DNA from: Haliotis rufescens
Lineage: Eukaryota
Reading direction: 5' to 3'
Assembly (NCBI RefSeq): GCF_023055435.1
Contig: NW_025963813.1
Location: 6,758,001-6,822,000 of the forward strand
Length of the DNA stretch: 64,000 bases
Shown: one piece after another, positions 2,511 to 60,920 of the stretch
How the letters are laid out: each line of letters begins with the position of its first letter
Numbering within the stretch: the first letter of the stretch is position 1
Notes under the pieces: generated by a model
The model's database searches: none
What the model saw: the letters and a program-made list of their open reading frames with translations, nothing else
What the model was told of the DNA's origin: nothing
Translations under genes and position numbers: made by a program

Positions 2511-5500
2511 ATGGAACAGAACACTATGGATCAAATGGAAATATGTTGTGAAAGTGGCAATATTCCACAAAGTCCTAAAGCTGTATCAGACTATGGACTA
2601 AGGGCAACATTGAGAAAAAGTGTAGTTGACATATTGGGGAATTTGGAAGAAAGTGTTATCTCTGAAATTGTTCAGGAGTTGGAGAAACTTGGTGTTGTAA
2701 CCATTCAGGATTTAGAGTGGATCCATGAAGACGATCTGAAGGGAAACATTCGACCTGTCCATGCACGGAAACTTTTGAGAAGATCCTTGATGCAGAGTTC
2801 CACCAGAATATCAGCTGGTAAGCAATCATCTGAATAGATATATGTAATCTTTTCCGTATGTCAGATGAGGGTGTTTGAATTTAGCATTCATTGCCTCTAC
2901 TTTAAATGTTTCTTGTGTAAAAAAACTTAATACCTGACTTTTTTTCAGTTCCCTGACAGATAACATCTATTTTTAATGTATTTCAACATTCGATTCTTTC
3001 GAGGAAAAAACTTTTAACACAATTTTATTGTCTTGCAAAGAAAATGTCTTTTTCGGAAATTTGGAAACAGTTAACCCTTCTCGTGCAGCTTACTTTACCG
3101 AACTGCATCTGTTAGTGGCGGCTCCCTTTTCCTTCACCTGTCCAATTTAGTTAATGATGTCTCGATTAATGTTCACAGTAAGTATCGGCCCACCTATATT
3201 GTAACACACCTATTATTAAATGGTCACCCATGTATGATAACATACCCAAGATTTGTGACATCTCACACCAACCACCACCCATCTCACACCCATCTCACAT
3301 AGACCACCACCCCACCAACAAGCACCCTTCCTGTATTTCTCACTGCGACATTGATTTGAGATTAACAACATTTAACTTCTATTAATATTAGTTCCAGGAA
3401 GTAGCTGTTCTTCCATGTCACCTTTGTCACCTACTTCGCCATCATCGAGTGATTCGTCCATGAAGTTTTCACCGAAAAGTCCGAAACCCATCATGTATTC
3501 AAATCGAGACCCCAATTGGCCGGTTAAGATGGAACTTCCCTGGGATGATCTGAACTGTTTAACCAAGGAGGCCCTTGTACAGGGTAAACGCTTAACACCA
3601 GATGCCAAGAAGGAGGTTGTACATAAGGTTGTGGATGTTGTAAGACGAAACACACATCATGCCCTCCGACCTCAGTTTTCGATCATTGCACAAAGGATGG
3701 TAGCTAAGTATACACAAAGTCTTCAAGACAAAATTGATGACAGTGTGGTGGGCTCTGGGTATGACACTTTGTTAAACAAATTAGTGACCAGGAACCAAAA
3801 TCTGAATCGCGGATCCTCAAAATTCTGCATGTCAGGAAAGAAACGGCCTATGCAGAATACAGAAACTGAATCTGGTAGTGACGATTCCAGAAATGAAGTC
3901 AAAACAAGGAGGGATTCCTATGGTTGTGTTAAATGGATGCCAGAGTTGAAAGGTGATAAAGTGAAGGTCATGGAGGAAATCAGGGATGCCCTGATTGAGA
4001 TGAATCAGTGTAATTCTGACAAAAAAGATGTGAACAAGATAGAAGAGAACATGTTGTCATGTTATGCTCTGCAGAGAAGGGACATCAATAGTGGAATGTC
4101 AGTGGTGGATCTCAAATTATCATGGCCATTTCTGTTCAGTATTCAAGGAGTTCTGTGTCACTCCCAGGAATTACTTGGTTTTAATGTGCGATCCGCTCTG
4201 GGAAATGCATACGCCAAGAAAGGACCTCGACTAAACAATTTCTTCAGGAAATCATCTGATGGAAATGAATTCATCTTTGATGAAGCACGACGACAGAGTA
4301 GTCAAGATAACCTGAAGGCTTGGTTGTCGGCAGTGGTACTGTGCATAATGGGACACCTTGGAGAAAAGGATGAAGAGCTTTTCTATGTTGTAGATGTAAG
4401 TTCAATATACAGGTTGCTGAATCTTGATCAATTTTCCCAGTATTTTAACTTCTGGAATTAATATTATGAATATAATACACTTGCTACCTGCCCAATCACC
4501 AGGGACTGTAAATTTCTGAATTTATGGGATGCACAGACACATTTTGCATGCATTTTATGACAGCTATATCTCTGAGGTAGAGGGGTTATGGGTATGGGGG
4601 TTAGCTGATTAGTGATTGTCTAAGGTTTAAAATATTCTTAGATGTACATGATGTAGGCAGATTTTGATTTTGGAACCTTTCTTGGGTCTTTGGTTAGAAA
4701 AAGATTAAAAACTGAGAGCTATTTAAGGGCACTCTGTTAAAGCAATCTCCTAGATATTCACATCAACAAATTATCCGTTCAGATAAATACATATATATCT
4801 AGCATTCCTTAAGTCCATATTGATTATTTGTCAAATGAATATAAAAGATGTCTTTTAAGAAAATATTTTATTTGAAGCTTTTAATTGTTCTTGTTATTCT
4901 AGTATTACATTCCATCTCTTTTCATGTACTTCATTTACCAAAGCTAAATTCACTAAAATGGTTACTCTTCTGAAAATAAAAGGTTTTAACACTTGTTTCT
5001 TAAGGAAACATCAACTGCTGCAGAAGTCCAGGCTTCCAGTAAAACAGATTCACCTGTGTTGGTGGTTTTGGGTATGTTGAATCAATTGTTGGCATGTCAG
5101 TTGTTTACAATGGGAGTTTGTTTACTGTAACATTGTGTACAGTGACTGTAGTCTACTCTTGGATGTGGTGAAAACTTGCAGACCCCCTGGATTCCGCGAT
5201 TCCATTGCACATTGTCCTTGTCATATGTAGACCAGGCTGCGGTTCCACAAAACAAACTAAAACTAAGATGATTGTGGGTAATACTGCATTCCAGTGGCTT
5301 GCTATGGTCATGGTGTGAAAATCGCATTGAAAACGGGTCCCCAAGGCAAGGCAACCTTCACGCTACGACCTTCGTAAGCCTGTGATGTGAAATGACTCGT
5401 CAAGGCCTAGTTTTAGATGATCTCTTTAAGATCATCTTAGCGTGAGGTTGTTTTGTGGAATGGGCTTCTGCTTTCTGTGGCAGAGATGGCGACATTCAAA

Positions 5501-6609: not shown

Positions 6610-7244
6610 AGTGATCGCAAGGAACTGTAACTTATATATCTAATACAGCTTTAAGTTGTTGTTTTACATGCTGAACTACGAGTGGTAATGAGTTTGCAGT
6701 TATTGTTTTATGGAAATAGTTAAAGATTTATTATTTCCACTTGATAAATGTAAAGCAGACTGGTAATGCAAATTTTATCTTTAACCAAGGTGTTTTATTT
6801 ATCATGAGCTGTATAGTGACTACATGATCATGATTAGTGACTGTAACTTGCTTGAAGATTTAAGCATGACTGAACTAGAACCCTTAAGTCCTATTTTAAT
6901 GTGCTGTTAATGTATATTGGTGGCAGATTTCATTATTTTCAATGAAGGTAAGGATATCAGAGTTTTAATAAGTAAAAATCAATGATAGGTGTTAGCAACA
7001 TTTACATAAAAACTGCAAATTAGATATTTAATTCACTTGTTAAAGTGGGCTGCATTGTTTAAATTTTGAGAGTTGCTGCAGATTGCCGTAATTTTTTTAT
7101 GTAGCTTAAAACCTGAAACCTGAAGTTTCAGTGGTATTCTGTTTTGCTATGATAGATTTAATTGTTTTCAATGAAACTAAGGATATCATAGTTCATTGGA
7201 TCACCATTAGATGTTTTATGAAGTTTGTCAAATTAGAGAGAAAG

Positions 7245-9220
7245 TTAACTGAGCATGTACATCACTTGGAGTGCCAGTAAACTCAGCTTGTACATCACTT
7301 GGAGTGTCTGTAAACTGAGTGTGTACATCACTTTGAGTACCTGTAAACTGATTTTGTACATCACTTTGAGTACCTGTAAACTGATTTTGTACATCCCTTT
7401 GAGTACCTGTAAACTGATTTTGTACATCACTTTGAGTACCTGTAAACTGAGTGTGTACATCACTTTGAGTACCTGTAAACTGATTTTGTACATCACTTTG
7501 AGTACCTGTAAACTGATTTTGTACATCACTTATGGTACCTGTAAACTGAGTGTGTACATCACTTTTAGTTCCTGTAAACTGATTTTGTACATCACTTTGA
7601 GTACCTGTAAACTGATTTTGTACATCACTTATGGTACCTGTAAACTGATTTTGTACATCACTTATGGTACCTGTAAACTGATTTTGTACATCACTTATGG
7701 TACCTGTAAACTGATTTTGTACATCACTTATGGTACCTGTAAACTGAGTGTGTACATCACTTTTAGTTCCTGTAAACTGATTTTGTACATCACTTATGGT
7801 ACCTGTAAACTGATTTTGTACATCCCTTTGAGTACCTGTAAACTGAGTGTGTACATCACTTTGAGTACCTGTAAACTGATTTTGTACATCACTTTGAGTA
7901 CCTGTAAACTGATTTTGTACATCACTTATGGTACCTGTAAACTGAGTGTGTACATCACTTTTAGTTCCTATAAACTGATTTTGTACATCACTTTGAGTAC
8001 CTGTAAACTGATTTTGTACATCACTTATGGTACCTGTAAACTGATTTTGTACATCACTTATGGTACCTGTAAACTGATTTTGTACATCACTTATGGTACC
8101 TGTAAACTGATTTTGTACATCACTTATGGTACCTGTAAACTGAGTGTGTACATCACTTTGAGTACCTGTAAACTGATTTTGTACATCACTTTGAGTACCT
8201 GTAAACTGATTTTGTACATCACTTATGGTACCTGTAAACTGATTTTGTACAGCACTTATGGTACCTGTAAACTGATTTTGTACATCACTTTGAGTACCTG
8301 TAAACTGATTTTGTACATCACTTATGGTACCTGTAAACTGATTTTGTACATCACTTATGGTACCTGTAAACTGATTTTGTACATCACTTATGGTACCTGT
8401 AAACTGATTTTGTACATCACTTATGGTACCTGTAAACTGAGTGTGTACATCACTTTGAGTACCTGTAAACTGATTTTGTACATCACTTATGGTACCTGTA
8501 AACTGATTTTGTACATCACTTATGGTACCTGTAAACTGAGTGTGTACATCACTTATGGTACCTGTAAACTGATTTTGTACATCACTTTGAGTACCTGTAA
8601 ACTGATTTTGTACATCACTTATGGTACCTGTAAACTGAGTGTGTACATCACTTTGAGTACCTGTAAACTGATTTTGTACATCACTTTGAGTACCTGTAAA
8701 CTGATTTTGTACATCACTTATGGTACCTGTAAACTGATTTTGTACATCACTTATGGTACCTGTAAACTGATTTTGTACATCACTTATGGTACCTGTAAAC
8801 TGATTTTGTACATCACTTATGGTACCTGTAAACTGAGTGTGTACATCACTTTGAGTACCTGTAAACTGATTTTGTACATCACTTTGAGTACCTGTAAACT
8901 GATTTTGTACATCACTTATGGTACCTGTAAACTGATTTTGTACATCACTTATGGTACCTGTAAACTGATTTTGTACATCACTTTGAGTACCTGTAAACTG
9001 ATTTTGTACATCACTTATGGTACCTGTAAACTGATTTTGTACATCACTTATGGTACCTGTAAACTGAGTGTGTACATCACTTTTAGTTCCTGTAAACTGA
9101 TTTTGTACATCACTTTGAGTACCTGTAAACTGATTTTGTACATCACTTATGGTACCTGTAAACTGAGTGTGTACATCACTTTTAGTTCCTGTAAACTGGG
9201 CATGTAGATCACTTCGAGTA
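7245..9220. repeat. 33-bp tandem minisatellite (~59 units) inside the transposon
   Basis: Unit TGTACATCACTTATGGTACCTGTAAACTGATTT with modular variants; the overlapping ORF has an 11-aa period. Confidence 0.97.
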
Positions 9221-9532: not shown

Positions 9533-9659
9533 TACGGTAAAAGGTTGGCAACCGTGCTGACGGTCATTTACTGTAAAAAGTACAGTATAAAAGTACTACG
9601 GTATATACTGTAGTACTACGGTAAATGCGCGTCAGCACGGTTGCCAACCTTTTACCGTA
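9533..9659. repeat. Perfect 30-bp subterminal inverted repeat
   Basis: TACGGTAAAAGGTTGGCAACCGTGCTGACG (9533-9562) is the exact reverse complement of 9630-9659. Confidence 0.95.
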
Positions 9660-23716: not shown

Positions 23717-25080
23717 TCAGTTCCCGCTAGATGTGCCTGAAATTGTCCGCAATAAGTTCGAGTCTTTATTATATCTGTTTTCAACATATTCGATATGTTT
23801 GCTCCAAGTCAGGTGTTGATCTAGGATCAGGCCTAGAAATTTGATTGGTTTGCCTTTTATGGAGAGAAAGGGTATTATAGCATCTTTCTCCCTGCGTTTG
23901 AATGGAACTCCCACAGTTTTTTTTCACTTGAAAGAGTGAACACCCATTCATTGCATCATTGATCTACTCCATCCATGGCTGACTGGAGTGACAGAACGTT
24001 TAATGCTGCCTGTGGCGTGCTGTTGTCTGGTGACATTGGAATGATTGTTCCCTATTTCAACTGATAGCAACAGGTCTTGCAAGAAGCTGTCTATGAAGTT
24101 TGCCATGTTCCATTCTTCTCCAGTTTGTGCTTGTTTGGTAAGGGGTCCACTATGCTATACCACGTCGAAGGCTTTGCTGAAGTCCAGAAATACTGCGGCT
24201 AGGTATAGTCTGTTTAATCGACATTTATTTACTTCATTTTCCAGTCTTAGTGTATGATCTAAACACGAGTGTCTCTCCCCGAAGCCGCTTTGATCAGGTT
24301 TGATGTGGTTGCAAGTTTCAAGGTGATGCGTGATTTTTCTTTTGTAGCCATGGCTTTCATAGTTCTGCACATGTTTGAAGTTAACCTTTTCTTTGACTGT
24401 TGGGGCGGTCGGGTAGCCTAGTGGTTCAAGCGTTCGCTCGTCACGCCGTAGATTCGGGTTCGATTCCCGACATGGGTACAATGTGTGAAGCCCATTTCTG
24501 GTGTCCCCCGCCGTGGTATTGCTCGAATACTGCTAAGAGCGGCGTAAAACCATACTCACTAACTCACTCTCACTCACACTCACTCTCTGTACGGGAATGG
24601 GGGTAACTTCGGAATTTTTGTAGGTTTACGCTCAGCCCTGATTGCATGTATTTTGCTCCAGACTGTTTTTAATCAGCATTTGTGGTTTCATTTAGAGATT
24701 TGCAGGTTTGCCATGACTCCATTTTAGAATCGTCTATGAGGTGTCTTACTTTTGTCCTGGATGCTGAGACTTGGGCGAAGACTGATTCATCCCATTTAGA
24801 CATATGGGCTTTCTTTCTCACTCTTTTGCTTTCGTTATTTCCCTGTTTCACCATGGTACCGAAGTTTTGCCGGTTGTGCCGGCTTTTGGGGGGAATTGAT
24901 TCAGCTGCGACAATAATTATTGAGGTGAGAATGTGGCAAAAAAGATCAGGATTATCCGATGCAATTCCTGGTGATTTGAATGATGTACATTCCTCCCTAA
25001 ATTTGAGCCAATCAGCCTTTGCATAGTCCCATGTAGGCAAAGGATTGGTCTGTTCCTCTAATGTTGGTGGGCTGCCCATA
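23717..25080 (-). pseudogene. Degraded non-LTR retrotransposon ORF2 (reverse transcriptase; I-group/Nimb-like), interrupted by a SINE
   Basis: Fragments WDYAKADWLKF, QSGF...SCLDH..RLEN..YLAAVFLDFSKAFDVV and IKFLGLILDQHLTWSKHI...NLLRTISGTS occur in the correct order with frameshifts. Confidence 0.85.
24402..24586 (+). mobile_element. Family-A tRNA-derived SINE nested in the LINE relic
   Basis: GGGGCGGTCGGGTAGCCTAGTGG...GGTTCGATTCCC...(ACTC)n. Confidence 0.9.
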
Positions 25081-41100: not shown

Positions 41101-44100
41101 AATAGCAAAAGGCACCAGTTCAGCATCTACTTGACAGACCTGCAAAGTTTGATGAAAAAATATTGAACGGTTTATGAGTTATGCTCCGGAAACGAAACGT
41201 GACGGACAGACTACAGACGGACGAACAGACGGATGTAAGGACGGACGGAGACAGTTTCTATATCCCCCACCAACTTTGTTGGGTGGGGGATAATAAGATA
41301 AGATGTTTTACTCCAATACAATACCTCTCGGAGTGAAGACCTGAGAACACCTCAATAGGAGATTGCATCAGGCAAAACCCTGACCGAAATTTTGGCTGCC
41401 CAGTCTACATAAAGAATGAGTGGGTTCTTGTGGCCATAAGATGCCCACTTTCTATAACAATTTGGCTTATTTCTTTACCATTTGACCCTGCCTGCCTGAC
41501 CCTGGCTGGTAACCTTTCTGTCGGCTGCATGAGATTTTCCTTTACATGCCTGACTGTCCGGCAGATAATTTTAAGACTCCTTATGTATTCAGTTTTATTA
41601 TAACTCCTCATAGATTCTCAGTTAATTGTTTGCATTATTTCAACCTTATCAAGACACAATTTGTTTCATATTTTATGCAATTTGCTAATATTTATAATGT
41701 CTGAATGCGGGCTTGTAACTTTTAAGATGGGCAGGCAACATTAATGGGTCTGTCTTGAAAAGTTGATGGGTTTTAAAATTATTTCAAACACTGACCATAA
41801 TGAGATTAGGGTACAATGTCCCATCAGTGCACATCAACTCATAGTGCAGACAAACCAAGGACCTGATTTGGGCCAAATTTTACCCAACCATGCTGTTCGT
41901 TTAATAGGTGACCTCATGCATAATCATTGGGTTTTGATACCAAATTTATCAGAGCAGTTTATCTCATTGTTAACACCATCTGAGATAAAACTGTTATTCT
42001 GTAGCTCACCTTATGTGCAGGGAAGGTGGAGGTCATGAGGGTCAGGAAGCTGCTGTTGCCCCGCTCCCCCTTCAGAGCATCCCAGCAGCGCTTCAGGCAG
42101 CTCACGTTGGTGTCTCGCTGACTCAGAGCTGAGGAGGACTGTGCCTGAAGACCATACACACGCAGGTACAATAGAGTCTGGACCAGACAATATAGTGACT
42201 GCCATTATGAGCATTGATCTATGCATAGGTTGGTTTGTTGTTTTACGCCGCACTCAGCAATATTCCAGCTATATGACGGCGGTCTGTAAAATAATCGAGG
42301 CTGGACCAGACAATCCAGTGATTGATATCATGAGCATCCATCCACGCAATTGGGATCGATGACATGCATCAACCAAGTCAGCAAACCTGACCACCCAATT
42401 CCGTTAGTCGCCTTTTAAGACAAGCATAGTCGCTTTTTAAGGCAAGCATGGGTTGCTGAAGACCTATTCTACCCCGGATCTTCACGGGTCCTATGAAATA
42501 GGCATACAAAGACATGCATCAACCAAGTCAGAGAGCCTGACAAACCGACCCTGTTAGTCACCTGTTCTAACAAGCATGGGTTGCTTATTTTAACCCAGGG
42601 TAACACTGAGCGAGTGAGTTGGGTTAAACGCTGCTTTTAAAAGTATTCCAGTCATATCACAGCGTGTCAGCTTAATATGGGAGGGAAAGCCCAAAGTGTT
42701 GCAGGTCTCAGACGTTTACCACTTTGGTAAAAGCCACGAGCACGGGTATGGTGCTGACAAACCTAGCAACATAAACAGGGCAAATCAGGATTCGAACCCA
42801 CAATCATAGGTTTCTGGCGTGCCCAAGGGACGCAACTCTGCACAGCAAATCGCGCGCCTTAGACGACTGGGCCCCCCAGGTAACACTGTGAGTTTATAAG
42901 TTACAAAGACTTACTTCCAAGGAAATATTTGTGTGTGACAATTGCATCAATCAAATGGCAGCCATAGAACTTCTAAGTTAACTCAAAATGCGAACGGGGC
43001 GGTCGGGGAGCCTACTGGTTAAAGCGTTAGCTCGTCACCCCGAAGACCCGGGTTCGATTCCCGACATGGGTACAATGTGTGAAGCCCATTTCTGGTGTCC
43101 CCGCCATGATATTGCTGGAATATTGCTAAAAGCGGCATAAAACCTCACCCACTCAAAATGCGAACCGAGTCAGTTGTGACCTGACAAGCAATTGACACCA
43201 ATTTACCTCACACATCATGATGTCATGACATAAGAAAAGGATGTGTATTGATTTTTCGGACAGTCAGAGAGCAATATTCTATAAGGAGTATTTATGAAAC
43301 TGGATATATATATGAAGCTTACCTGTACAGATAAAAACATGAGGTGTATCCATGTTTTGGGCAGGCGTGTGTTGAGTGTGAAGTAGCTGTTGAAATACAG
43401 GCACTGCTCCGACTGACTACAACACTGAAAGTGGAGGCGCAGGTACCGCCGTCGGCCATCTAGAATCATGATATACAGCATGCAGTCCGTTTGCCAGAGA
43501 CAGATGGCAATAGGGAATTCTCATATTAATGTCAACTTTCAATGCAACATTTTCATGATTATATCAATCTTCGATAGGGGTGCACGGTTGGCCCAGTCGT
43601 CTAAGGCGCCGCGATTCGCTGTGCAGAGTTGTGTCCCTTGGGCACGCCAGAAACCTATGATTGTGGGTTCCAATCCCGGTTCGCCCCGATTATGTTTCTA
43701 GGTTTGTCAGCACCATACCTGTGCTCGTGGGTTTCATCGAAGTGGTAAATGTCTAAGACCTGAATCACTTCGGGCTTTCCTCCCACATTAAGCTGACACG
43801 CCGTGATATAACTGGAATACTGTTAAAAGTGGCGTTAAACCCAATTCACTCACTCACTCACTCAATCTTCGATAGGGCATTTTCATGAATTTATGAACTT
43901 TTTATGGGACATTCCCTAATGCCATTAGCAAATGTCAAAAATACATGTTTGATAACAATAACTTCATGTCCTAGAAATTGAACTGATCTAAAAGGTGATA
44001 AATTCACGGTCTGACTGTTGACTCTGAAAGTAGCAGCTGACTTATTATGTGTTACAAGCAGGTAATTCTACATTACCACTCTAACTCTAAAACAGAGGGA

Positions 44101-59100: not shown

Positions 59101-60920
59101 GCAGCCTGTGTGGTTAGCGGCTGAAGCGGATACATGAGAAGAAGACGTGTGTACTTGAATGTGTGTGATTTAAAACTGACGTGTTGCACTATCAGGATTG
59201 TTTGTTTGAAAATTATTAATATATATATACATACATGTATACATGGTATATGGTTATATCATGGCATGTCAGCTTAATATGGGAGGAAAGTCCAAAGTGA
59301 GTGAGTGAGTGAGTGAGTGAGTGAGTGAGTCTGGTTTTACGCCGCTTTTAGCAATATTCCAGCAATATCACGGCGGGGGACACCAGAAATGGGCTTCACA
59401 CATTGTACCCATGTCGGGAATCGAACCCGGGTCTTCGGCTTGACGAGCGAACGCTTTAACCACTAGGCTACCCGACCGCCCCAAGTCCAAAGTGATGCAG
59501 GTCTCAGATGTTTACTACATTGGTGAAACCAACGAGCAAAGGTATGGTGCTGACAAACCTAGAAACTGAATCAGTTGTGGTTATATTACAGTTACAAAAG
59601 ATGGGATATAGATGGACACAAACATATGGCATAGAGGGCACTGTGAATGTTATGATACATAAAGACAACAGGGAAATACCAGACAATCGGTTGAACAGTT
59701 TGTTTTTTTATCACATGTTTTTACACCATCATAACTTGTAAAGTAATGTGCTGAATGTATTGTGATACAAGGGTTCCAAATCAATCCACTGTAAACTACG
59801 TTAATTACGAACACGATTATACCGAACTGACGGATATAACTAACTGTTTTTGAGTCCCGTCCATTTCCAGCAAAAAGTCTGTATATGTGCCTATAACGAA
59901 CTACGGTTATAACAAACTAAAATTAATGGCCCCTTTTTGTTCGTTATAACCGTAGTTTACTGTATTGTATCGAGGGCCTTGTTTGGGGTTACAATACTTT
60001 ATTGCTGTATCTTTACACACAGCCAACACATCGGAGTCTGTTTCATCATGCTAATACCCCTTTTCACTACAACCACGAATATCGTGGAGCACTCTGAATC
60101 GGAAACTTTCGAAATTTGTGATGATTTGGCCAATAATGCCAACTTTCATGCCTAATTGGGTTGAAAAATATGAAGAGTGCCAGGAATGGGTTAAGAAACA
60201 TGTACCAATTACAAGATCCATGTACAGATCATGCACGAATTGTAAGAATCACCTACGACTAAGTTACGAATATGCTGAATGTTGTTCTTACTTAATTCTT
60301 ACATGATTCGTAGTTGACTCGGGACATTCATGGCTGTTTTGGGGTGTTTTCGGGTTGAGGTCAAGAAATGTTTGTAGCCACGAATCGCTAAGAATAGCCA
60401 AGAATGCAAACGAATCAATTACGAAGCTGTTTCGGTACATAAGAATTAATTACAAATAGATTACGATACAGCCATGAAATTGCAATTCGTGGACCCTTCC
60501 ACAAACAAAAACTTTCTCGCCAATTCGACAAACTCCAACGAACTGTACAAATATTTGGGCATCAAAAAAGATTCATTTAAGAACTTCAAGAAATGATTGA
60601 GATTTATCTACGAACATGAAAATTTGCCTATTCGGGGTGATTCGGGATATTCATGGTCGTAGTGAAATAAGGGCATAATCAAACTAACAGTGCTTGATTA
60701 TCCTTGCCTACCTGATGGCTGTCGTGATCCTGGTGATGCAGATCTCCACCACGCTCTGATCGTTATCGTTGCTGTCATAGTCGGCAGTATCAGCAATGTC
60801 ATGTATGCGGTCAATGATGTCCGAGAGGTCGGCTTCTATGTCCTTATCCTCCAAAGAGAACAGCTCCCCTGCTTTAGACAGATCCTTCTGGTTAAGGACT
60901 TCGGCAAAAAGCTTGTGCAT
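37969..60920 (-). CDS. VEPH1: VEPH1/melted orthologue (ventricular zone-expressed PH-domain protein); 14 coding exons, 2286 nt, ~761 aa
   Basis: N-terminus [23 protein letters not shown]...[20 protein letters not shown] is characteristic of VEPH1/Melted. C-terminal PH domain [25 protein letters not shown]...FEIFT...EQWVQCL. All junctions are GT-AG and phase-consistent. Confidence 0.95.
39304..39408 (-). CDS. VEPH1: VEPH1 exon 13 (PH domain start)
   Basis: [35 protein letters not shown]. Confidence 0.94.
40399..40548 (-). CDS. VEPH1: VEPH1 exon 12
   Basis: [19 protein letters not shown]...[11 protein letters not shown]...PVIA. Confidence 0.92.
40902..41296 (+). mobile_element. Non-autonomous Helentron/HINE (DINE-1/pearl-like) element
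   Basis: AACAA start, TATATCCCCC near both ends, GACG/GACA microsatellite, 3' hairpin CCCCCACCAAC..GTTGGGTGGGGG followed by ATAATAA. Confidence 0.7.
42010..42144 (-). CDS. VEPH1: VEPH1 exon 11
   Basis: [11 protein letters not shown]...LKRCWDALK...[13 protein letters not shown]. Confidence 0.9.
42227..42490 (-). mobile_element. Family-C SINE-like element (full length, within a cluster of SINE fragments)
   Basis: Reverse family-C consensus with complete GACCCGTGAAGATCC head. Confidence 0.87.
42607..42877 (-). mobile_element. Family-B SINE
   Basis: Reverse copy; GGTAACACTG duplication. Confidence 0.85.
42996..43155 (+). mobile_element. Family-A SINE
   Basis: 15-bp TSD ACTCAAAATGCGAAC. Confidence 0.9.
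43323..43459 (-). CDS. VEPH1: VEPH1 exon 10
   Basis: [12 protein letters not shown]...CLY...[13 protein letters not shown]. Confidence 0.9.
43577..43864 (+). mobile_element. Family-B SINE (tRNA-Leu-like head)
   Basis: TGGCCCAGTCGTCTAAGGCGCC..GTGGGTTCCAATCCC; TSD TCAATCTTCGATAGGG. Confidence 0.9.
44695..44812 (-). CDS. VEPH1: VEPH1 exon 9
   Basis: [20 protein letters not shown]...[11 protein letters not shown]. Confidence 0.9.
45928..46045 (-). CDS. VEPH1: VEPH1 exon 8 (Ser-rich linker)
   Basis: [16 protein letters not shown]...QNQS; phase 2-0; donor GTGAGT. Confidence 0.75.
47616..48172. mobile_element. MITE with ~70-bp TIRs (same family as 35071-35615)
   Basis: Terminal inverted repeats and colinear internal similarity. 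Confidence 0.87.
48596..48769 (-). CDS. VEPH1: VEPH1 exon 7 (low-complexity linker)
   Basis: [12 protein letters not shown]...AKSS; phase 2-2 fits its neighbours; donor GTGAGT. Confidence 0.78.
49380..49908 (-). mobile_element. Adjacent family-C (49380-49625) and family-B (49631-49908) SINEs
   Basis: Reverse matches to both consensus sequences. Confidence 0.82.
50586..50800 (-). CDS. VEPH1: VEPH1 exon 6
   Basis: [14 protein letters not shown]...ILQEIRGI...EDLKK. Confidence 0.88.
51700..53972. repeat. 85-bp tandem array (plus ~45-bp truncated units) derived from the VEPH1 exon-5 end and donor site
   Basis: Period 85 (53768/53853/53938); the unit is contiguous with and near-identical to the exon 5 3' end. 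Confidence 0.96.
53918..54127 (-). CDS. VEPH1: VEPH1 exon 5
   Basis: [10 protein letters not shown]...[14 protein letters not shown]; 210 nt, phase 0-0. Confidence 0.88.
54994..55157 (-). CDS. VEPH1: VEPH1 exon 4
   Basis: [12 protein letters not shown]...AKKKPQ. Confidence 0.9.
55170..56430. repeat. ~18-22-bp tandem array (ACACACAGGTCATGTATC) abutting the exon-4 acceptor
   Basis: Direct inspection. Confidence 0.96.
56432..57289. repeat. 25-bp tandem array (~33 units) derived from the exon-3 donor junction
   Basis: Unit CAGCCACCTACCCCACAGGACACTA versus the real junction CAGCTACCTAC|CACGCAGGACACTA. Confidence 0.95.
57276..57450 (-). CDS. VEPH1: VEPH1 exon 3
   Basis: [19 protein letters not shown]...[10 protein letters not shown]...ADLLAKH...VLRG. 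Confidence 0.92.
58477..58621 (-). CDS. VEPH1: VEPH1 exon 2
   Basis: [13 protein letters not shown]...[17 protein letters not shown]. Confidence 0.92.
58825..59000 (-). mobile_element. Family-C SINE-like element, 5'-truncated
   Basis: Reverse body and tail; flanked by GTGAAAAAGG/ATGAAAAAGG. Confidence 0.82.
59298..59482 (-). mobile_element. Young family-A SINE nested in a family-B SINE
   Basis: 13-bp TSD AAGTCCAAAGTGA at 59288-59300 and 59483-59495. Confidence 0.92.
59787..59964. mobile_element. Short Tc1/mariner-like MITE
   Basis: CACTGTAAACTACGTTAATTACGAAC ... GTTCGTTATAACCGTAGTTTACTGTA imperfect TIRs. Confidence 0.55.
60054..60676. mobile_element. TIR element with internal ACGAA/TTCGT motifs (possibly PIF/Harbinger-related MITE)
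   Basis: ATACCCCTTTTCACTACAACCACGAATATC versus GATATTCATGGTCGTAGTGAAATAAGGGCAT. Confidence 0.7.
60712..60920 (-). CDS. VEPH1: VEPH1 coding exon 1
   Basis: MHKLF...ITTAIR; donor GTAGGC; upstream acceptor CAG at 60931-60929. Confidence 0.93.

Follow-up and report, generated by a model that had tools for sequence, protein, structure and literature searches.

The head of a SINE from the abalone Haliotis rufescens folds, according to our model, into a compact pseudoknotted RNA, and our preferred reading, to which we give a probability of roughly 0.55, is that this RNA is an exoribonuclease-resistant RNA (xrRNA) of a new fold, which would set the 5' ends of SINE RNAs by stalling the 5'-to-3' decay of host transcripts. 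Quite apart from what it does, the head is an RNA fold that covaries strongly and matches nothing in Rfam. Both the SINE family and its head sequence have probably been published before, and it is the RNA fold that is newly described here; a search of the open-access literature found nothing on the fold, on its viral copies or on any retrotransposon that carries an xrRNA. The element lies in a stretch of 64,000 nucleotides of contig NW_025963813.1, referred to below as the window, whose numbering is used throughout. A first-pass annotation of the window had proposed that this SINE begins, in place of a tRNA head, with a conserved pseudoknotted RNA that might be a self-cleaving ribozyme.

The SINE copy, of the LP-SINE type discussed below, is 261 nt long and occupies 42230..42490 on the minus strand, starting at 42490 and ending at about 42230. 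Behind the head lies a body (42276..42403, minus strand) and then a LINE-like tail (42230..42275, minus strand) that ends in short A/C repeats. As the first-pass annotation had noted for the tRNA-SINEs, this tail is held in common; it resembles those of the tRNA-SINE and of the I/Nimb-type LINEs of the genome. A probable degenerate target site duplication (TSD), read by eye, flanks the copy (5' copy at 42491..42502, minus strand; 3' copy at about 42219-42229), and a second, separate member of the family, damaged and 5'-truncated, lies just upstream (42511..42604, minus strand). The family is large, with at least 12,059 exact copies of a 29-nt head core in the 1.33-Gb genome and 0 for the reversed-pattern control, and its members are flanked by TSDs, have a common 5' start and lack pol III boxes. 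Only one-mismatch matches to the A and B boxes were found in the LP-type SINE, the tRNA-SINE of the window giving a perfect B box, and at the locus there is neither a tRNA-like match nor a tRNA-derived-SINE head with A and B boxes; on both points the first-pass annotation was correct. Its quoted consensus does not describe the copy at 42400-42490, in which the hairpin unit is duplicated and mutated and the 3' strand is changed. The duplicated form is the commoner one, present in 12 of 16 scorable copies from 30 unselected loci. Tandem arrays of the SINE head alone, with a period of about 44-52 nt, were also seen (L341, L358 and L365). Elsewhere the window contains tRNA-derived SINE heads (24407-24478 and 59406-59477), an open frame of 361 codons (3376-4461), a long array of a 33-bp tandem unit (7112-9220) and a near-perfect palindrome (9537-9655).

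In our model the head is an H-type pseudoknot, made of a 4-bp stem S1, a 7-bp stem S2 and an AGAAUA linker; behind it stands a conserved hairpin whose loop resembles a T-loop, and covariation across families supports this arrangement. S1, of about 4 bp, closes an 8-nt loop that consists of one U and of 7 bases which pair with the 7 bases after the linker to form S2. At the locus, reading along the minus strand, the element starts 2 nt upstream of the 5' strand of S1 (42485..42488). There follow loop L1, a nearly invariant U (42484..42484; U in 24 of 28 rows), the 5' strand of S2 (42477..42483, 7 nt) and the 3' strand of S1 (42473..42476). The linker, recognized by family comparison, forms the end of loop L3 (42465..42470) and is followed by the 3' strand of S2 (42458..42464); both 3' strands were placed from the covariation alignment. 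Of the two copies of the conserved hairpin that result from the subfamily duplication, the first is degenerate (42429..42443, minus strand), and the second, with the UAA that follows it, has one stem mismatch and a loop that is probably T-loop-like (42404..42421, minus strand). A model of the motif, R1, scores 47.6 bits at the locus.

In an alignment of 16 representatives, picked by hand as intact, 93% of 176 cells are paired and two-sided changes occur in all seven S2 pairs; none of 500 shuffles matched this result, and slid controls gave 39-50%. With 24 unselected cluster medoids, drawn from 104 matches, none of 100,000 partner swaps reached the score of S2. The first-pass annotation was right that the head is a conserved pseudoknotted RNA. 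The same test is uninformative for S1 (34,143 of 100,000 swaps as good), which is too conserved to pass it, and it lends weak support to the lower stem of the second domain (3,722 of 100,000). An automatic-anchor alignment, which is crude, with several rows mis-registered and 28 of 30 rows usable, paired 134 of 196 cells compared with 97 on swapping. Minimum free energy folding of the head was no better than that of shuffles (z 0.13), a null result that can arise with a pseudoknot. An 18-nt block of the head is conserved in sequence, and in two families L3 carries inserts of about 60-70 nt. Of the four pairings that had been drawn in the first-pass annotation, GAAGATC with GGTCTTC survives as a stem of the pseudoknot, and GTCG with CGAC also holds. 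The long-range pairing of the 5' and 3' ends and the kissing loop are unsupported across families, 94,801 and 64,543 of 100,000 swaps, respectively, being as good. It is possible that the long-range helix serves as an alternative fold in the SINE family of the locus alone, in which it has five Watson-Crick pairs in competition with S1.

A first set of family copies had been chosen by similarity to the head; the 45 copies used to look for TSDs were unselected. Although 34 of the 45 gave no TSD call, the 11 with a TSD of at least 8 nt begin at or within a few nucleotides of one G, as had been claimed: five start exactly there and the other six between 3 nt inside and 4 nt outside it. In six SINE families from metagenomes the shared sequence, as judged from the divergence of the flanks, begins 1-3 nt before S1, and in these families the distance from S1 to the conserved hairpin ranges from about 48 to 125 nt. 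Since the start stays near S1 despite this variable distance, the end of the SINE follows the knot and not a fixed spacing. The proposal that the RNA's 5' end is set by the head is probably right. Small-RNA (miRNA-seq) runs gave 26 reads and no pile-up of ends, too sparse a sample for sense 5' ends. The base preceding the first G in 29 SINE copies of this genome is A in 10, G in 10, T in 9 and C in 0, a small sample that includes tandem copies.

Heads of this kind were described in 2016 by Matetovici et al. (PMC4758252), who reported LP-SINEs from Haliotis (Hdi_LP/Hmi_LP, 255 nt), oysters and periwinkle, with a head of about 70 nt that corresponds to the 5' end of three LINEs (Nimb-17_LMi, I-3_DR and RTE-9_CPB) and was guessed to be a promoter. 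The SINE of the locus resembles the published elements in having a non-tRNA head of about 70 nt from a LINE 5' UTR, TSDs and a repeat tail, and differs slightly in length (261 against 255 nt). In our own data the head is homologous to the 5' UTR of 19 of 20 LINEs of this genome and to that of a further LINE (L252), and the element has TSDs, a LINE-like tail, a short tandem-repeat end and a length close to 255 nt. The family is probably of the LP-SINE type, the match to Hdi_LP/Hmi_LP being to their published description. The scallop head in Supplementary Figure S2 of that paper, compared by eye, shows the same order of motifs with its own complementary S2 strands. The head fits the LP head, a known SINE head, and a match of this kind is one that the first-pass annotation itself had named as counting against its proposal. 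In its available portions the 2016 description proposes a promoter and gives no RNA fold, viral occurrence or upstream HDV-like ribozyme, and the available part of PMC11481361 mentions neither LP-SINEs nor ribozymes.

The promoter hypothesis takes the head to be an internal DNA promoter, possibly with a second role as RNA. It is in keeping with the 5'-end position of the motif in three LINEs and several SINEs (PMC4758252) and with the sequence conservation of the 18-nt block, and Pr77, a dual promoter and ribozyme cited in the same paper, provides a precedent. A DNA promoter does not, however, predict covariation of base pairs, variable spacing, or occurrence in RNA viruses without a DNA stage; furthermore, initiation at the knot would yield LINE copies that lack the ribozyme described below, and none was seen among 37 inspected. 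We consider this explanation quite unlikely.

Judged by sequence, many SINEs and LINEs of animals share the motif, and it extends to viruses. A 17-nt hairpin pattern matched at least 122 metagenome loci and 9 virus loci. A covariance model made from 15 animal-derived rows only was run on 88 loci and gave 39-73 bits for seven RNA-virus contigs, which represent six distinct viruses; because patterns had been used to find these loci in the first place, the scores are partly built in, but the pairing of S2 is not. The RNA-virus contigs encode RdRP or capsid domains and belong to positive-strand RNA viruses of mixed kinds. In them the motif is in the sense orientation within the 3' UTR, 7-200 nt past the last stop codon, and in one contig (L162) it is duplicated in tandem, with a compensatory change in S2 between the two copies. 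The same model gave 66 bits for a motif in the sense orientation between two open reading frames of an AT-rich DNA-virus contig of 212 kb (L165:7980-8054). A homologue whose knot is intact, with 7 of 7 S2 pairs, occurs in two phage-like contigs of 31 and 76 kb (L381:2489-2563, minus strand; L388:352-426, plus strand); it is intergenic and lies ahead of a terminator-like hairpin. A phage collection that we searched contained no similar DNA. The first virus pattern gave 0 matches and looser virus scans mostly chance matches, and in one such scan 5 of 54 loci had all seven S2 pairs, all at the usual offset. These five are three of the known RNA-virus loci and two loci of one phage-like lineage.

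A strict pattern, which would miss divergent members, gave 6 matches in 185,579 prokaryote genomes. These GTDB matches (L171-L176) were rejected as bacterial members, their flanks, with simple repeats, TSDs and a LINE, looking like animal DNA. One of the six is a complete LINE (L252) inside a clam-symbiont scaffold; it has two ORFs, with endonuclease, RT and RNase H domains, and carries the motif. In another SINE family (L092, L101, L115 and L120) the head stands ahead of a tRNA-like promoter region, as in the scallop MESC SINEs.

The viral 3' UTR is the typical position of an xrRNA (PMC8374639), and the location of the viral motif is also explained by a block to exonucleases. It fits a translation enhancer equally well. 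The head might be a cap-independent, ribosome-recruiting element, similar to a 3' CITE, which serves uncapped LINE and viral RNAs and was captured by SINEs to reach the LINE protein. The position just past viral stop codons suits such an element, which would also account for strong conservation behind an HDV-like ribozyme, where the RNA would be uncapped. Yet the mixed kinds of virus and the homologue in phage-like contigs are not what it predicts, and some other cause would be needed for the SINE 5' ends, which in independent families track S1. On balance a translation element seems to us fairly unlikely.

The LINEs that share the motif limit which mechanisms are plausible. We sought LINEs of the abalone genome with the C-terminal protein of the LINE in the clam-symbiont scaffold, and from 136 scored matches took 20 with long open frames. 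In 19 of these 20 intact LINEs the motif lies about 0.4-0.6 kb ahead of ORF1, and the tail is similar to that of the SINE; that they are of the I/Nimb type is suggested by domain content and the literature, rather than by a tree. Directly upstream of the motif in 18 of the 19 is a 57-nt HDV-like fold, the nineteenth element being truncated inside the knot. This predicted minimal ribozyme fold at the LINE start (for example L291:1637-1693, plus strand, and L283:6140-6196, minus strand), seen in about 800 genome copies, is followed after 0-1 nt by the motif. An HDV descriptor recognized 28 of 30 LINE ends and none of 85 SINE heads, and in those 85 heads the HDV-like nested double pseudoknot P1-P4 with L3 and a catalytic C was not found. 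Rfam gave weak matches to the LINE fold, below the gathering score, at three of four loci (E 0.15-0.26). HDV-like ribozymes are known from the 5' ends of R1, R2, R4, RTE, and also Ingi and LOA elements (PMC5786205); here the fold is predicted for the partner LINEs, whereas the SINE lacks it and has as its head the module that follows it. An antisense, piRNA-like small RNA of 31 nt lies over the LINE pseudoknot at L291:1700-1730 (127 reads with one start, in one run, X21).

TSDs abut the G1 of the ribozyme in 18 of 22 LINE copies, and among 827 copies with an intact knot, genome-wide, its exact 3' end is attached in 800. All of 30 unselected copies and all 7 that we inspected of the 27 exceptions keep it, so that of the 827 none of the 37 inspected starts at the knot. 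Trimmed LINE RNA is therefore not a common template, and the genomic 5' ends fit an end set by the structure in SINEs but not in LINEs. This difference has implications for mechanism. If a self-cut, a cut by a protein or a transcription start occurred at the 5' edge of the knot, LINE RNA would lose its ribozyme and LINE copies would start at the knot, and none was seen to do so. Of the mechanisms that we weighed, knot ends in the SINEs and not in these LINEs are expected only from one that is sensitive to the state of the upstream 5' end.

The same comparison weakens the case for the self-cleaving ribozyme of the first-pass annotation, a new class that would cut just 5' of the knot. The sharp 5' ends, the compact, conserved and pseudoknotted form and the occurrence in phage-like contigs are all in its favor. 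In addition, the 5' domain of the pistol ribozyme consists of a short stem, a fully paired loop and then an A-rich linker, as does the head. But the LINEs keep their adjoining ribozyme, with the caveat that the HDV helix next to the knot could block cleavage there, and a cut within the 3' UTR of a positive-strand virus would sever the end of the genome. No known catalytic core was recognized either. As the first-pass annotation had found, the head lies outside the HDV, hammerhead and twister consensus: descriptor and motif tests were negative, with the core motifs of hammerhead, twister and pistol, in a crude form, absent from both strands, and Rfam gave no match at the locus or at 20 homologous loci. 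The P2/P3 junction and catalytic core of pistol are missing by the same tests. We regard self-cleavage as very doubtful. A mimic of the tRNA elbow that recruits a host endonuclease, for example RNase P, would meet the same objection from the LINEs, and no tRNA-like match was found. What favors it is the loop of the conserved hairpin, in which positions 1 and 5 stay U and A, respectively, and position 4 a purine, while position 3 varies. T-loops follow the pattern U, any base, any base, purine, A, with two extruded bases, a pattern that this loop fits. Even so, such a mimic is extremely improbable.

In the mechanism that we favor, the head would be a mobile RNA module, pseudoknot plus hairpin, that blocks 5'-to-3' exoribonucleases of the XRN1/XRN2 type, with the T-loop-like hairpin perhaps docking on the knot. 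A host transcript or intron would run through a SINE copy, read-through being the presumed origin of SINE RNA; decay of this transcript would stop at the base of the knot, and the SINE RNA left behind, its 5' end fixed, would be copied by a partner LINE. In viral RNAs the product would be a short 3' subgenomic RNA. XRN enzymes need a 5'-phosphate. In the LINEs the 5'-OH end left by the ribozyme, together with its tight fold, may keep the nuclease from loading, so that full-length RNA persists. Protection of 5' ends by HDV folds has been proposed (PMC11331408).

The closest analogues are the class 3 xrRNAs of plant viruses, in which a stem-loop pairs with a 3' strand to form a pseudoknot; they contain a T-loop, and it is at the base of P1 that XRN1 stops (PMC12397905). 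The head is like them in that the apical loop pairs with a 3' strand, in its putative T-loop, in its site in viral 3' UTRs and in a predicted RNA end at the foot of the first helix (PMC12397905, PMC8374639). It is unlike them, as far as they are described in these sources, in lacking a P2 helix, a J1/2 bulge, L2B in the apical loop and an AGY motif; its T-loop-like loop is in a separate downstream hairpin, and it is found in animal retroelements. By analogy the head may work like a class 3 xrRNA, of which it is not a member because the detailed core differs. Nor does it have the three-way junction and double pseudoknot of classes 1 and 2, being an H-type knot plus a hairpin.

Several observations count against a block to exonucleases. 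Known xrRNA rings measure 15-16 nt (PMC8374639), as against the inserts of about 60-70 nt in L3; a pseudoknot alone is insufficient for resistance (PMC12397905); and there is a good homologue in a phage-like lineage. Strong conservation of the module in LINEs that are led by a ribozyme, where none of the 37 copies inspected was trimmed to the knot, is also not fully accounted for. Across eight LINEs the 130-nt module shows 91-100% identity, compared with 56-77% for a stretch of ORF2, an indication that the module has an additional task or has recently been swapped.

A broader form of the favored interpretation, for which we would put the odds just short of even, is that the module constitutes a fourth structural class of xrRNA, exchanged between the LINEs and SINEs of animals, RNA viruses of invertebrates, a large DNA virus and a phage, and that LP-SINEs are carved from host transcripts by the 5'-to-3' decay machinery. 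With neither promoter nor ribozyme, this would be a third route to retrotransposon RNA. With the partner LINEs, the I/Nimb type joins those LINE groups for which an HDV-like ribozyme is predicted. Since 2016 the LP head has been an unexplained domain common to distant LINEs and SINEs. Should it prove to be an xrRNA, it would be a non-viral one encoded in a genome, a kind that a 2021 review regarded as yet to be discovered (PMC8374639). It would also explain how SINEs without a pol III head come to have RNA with a fixed 5' end, and a 70-nt part would link retrotransposons with RNA viruses.
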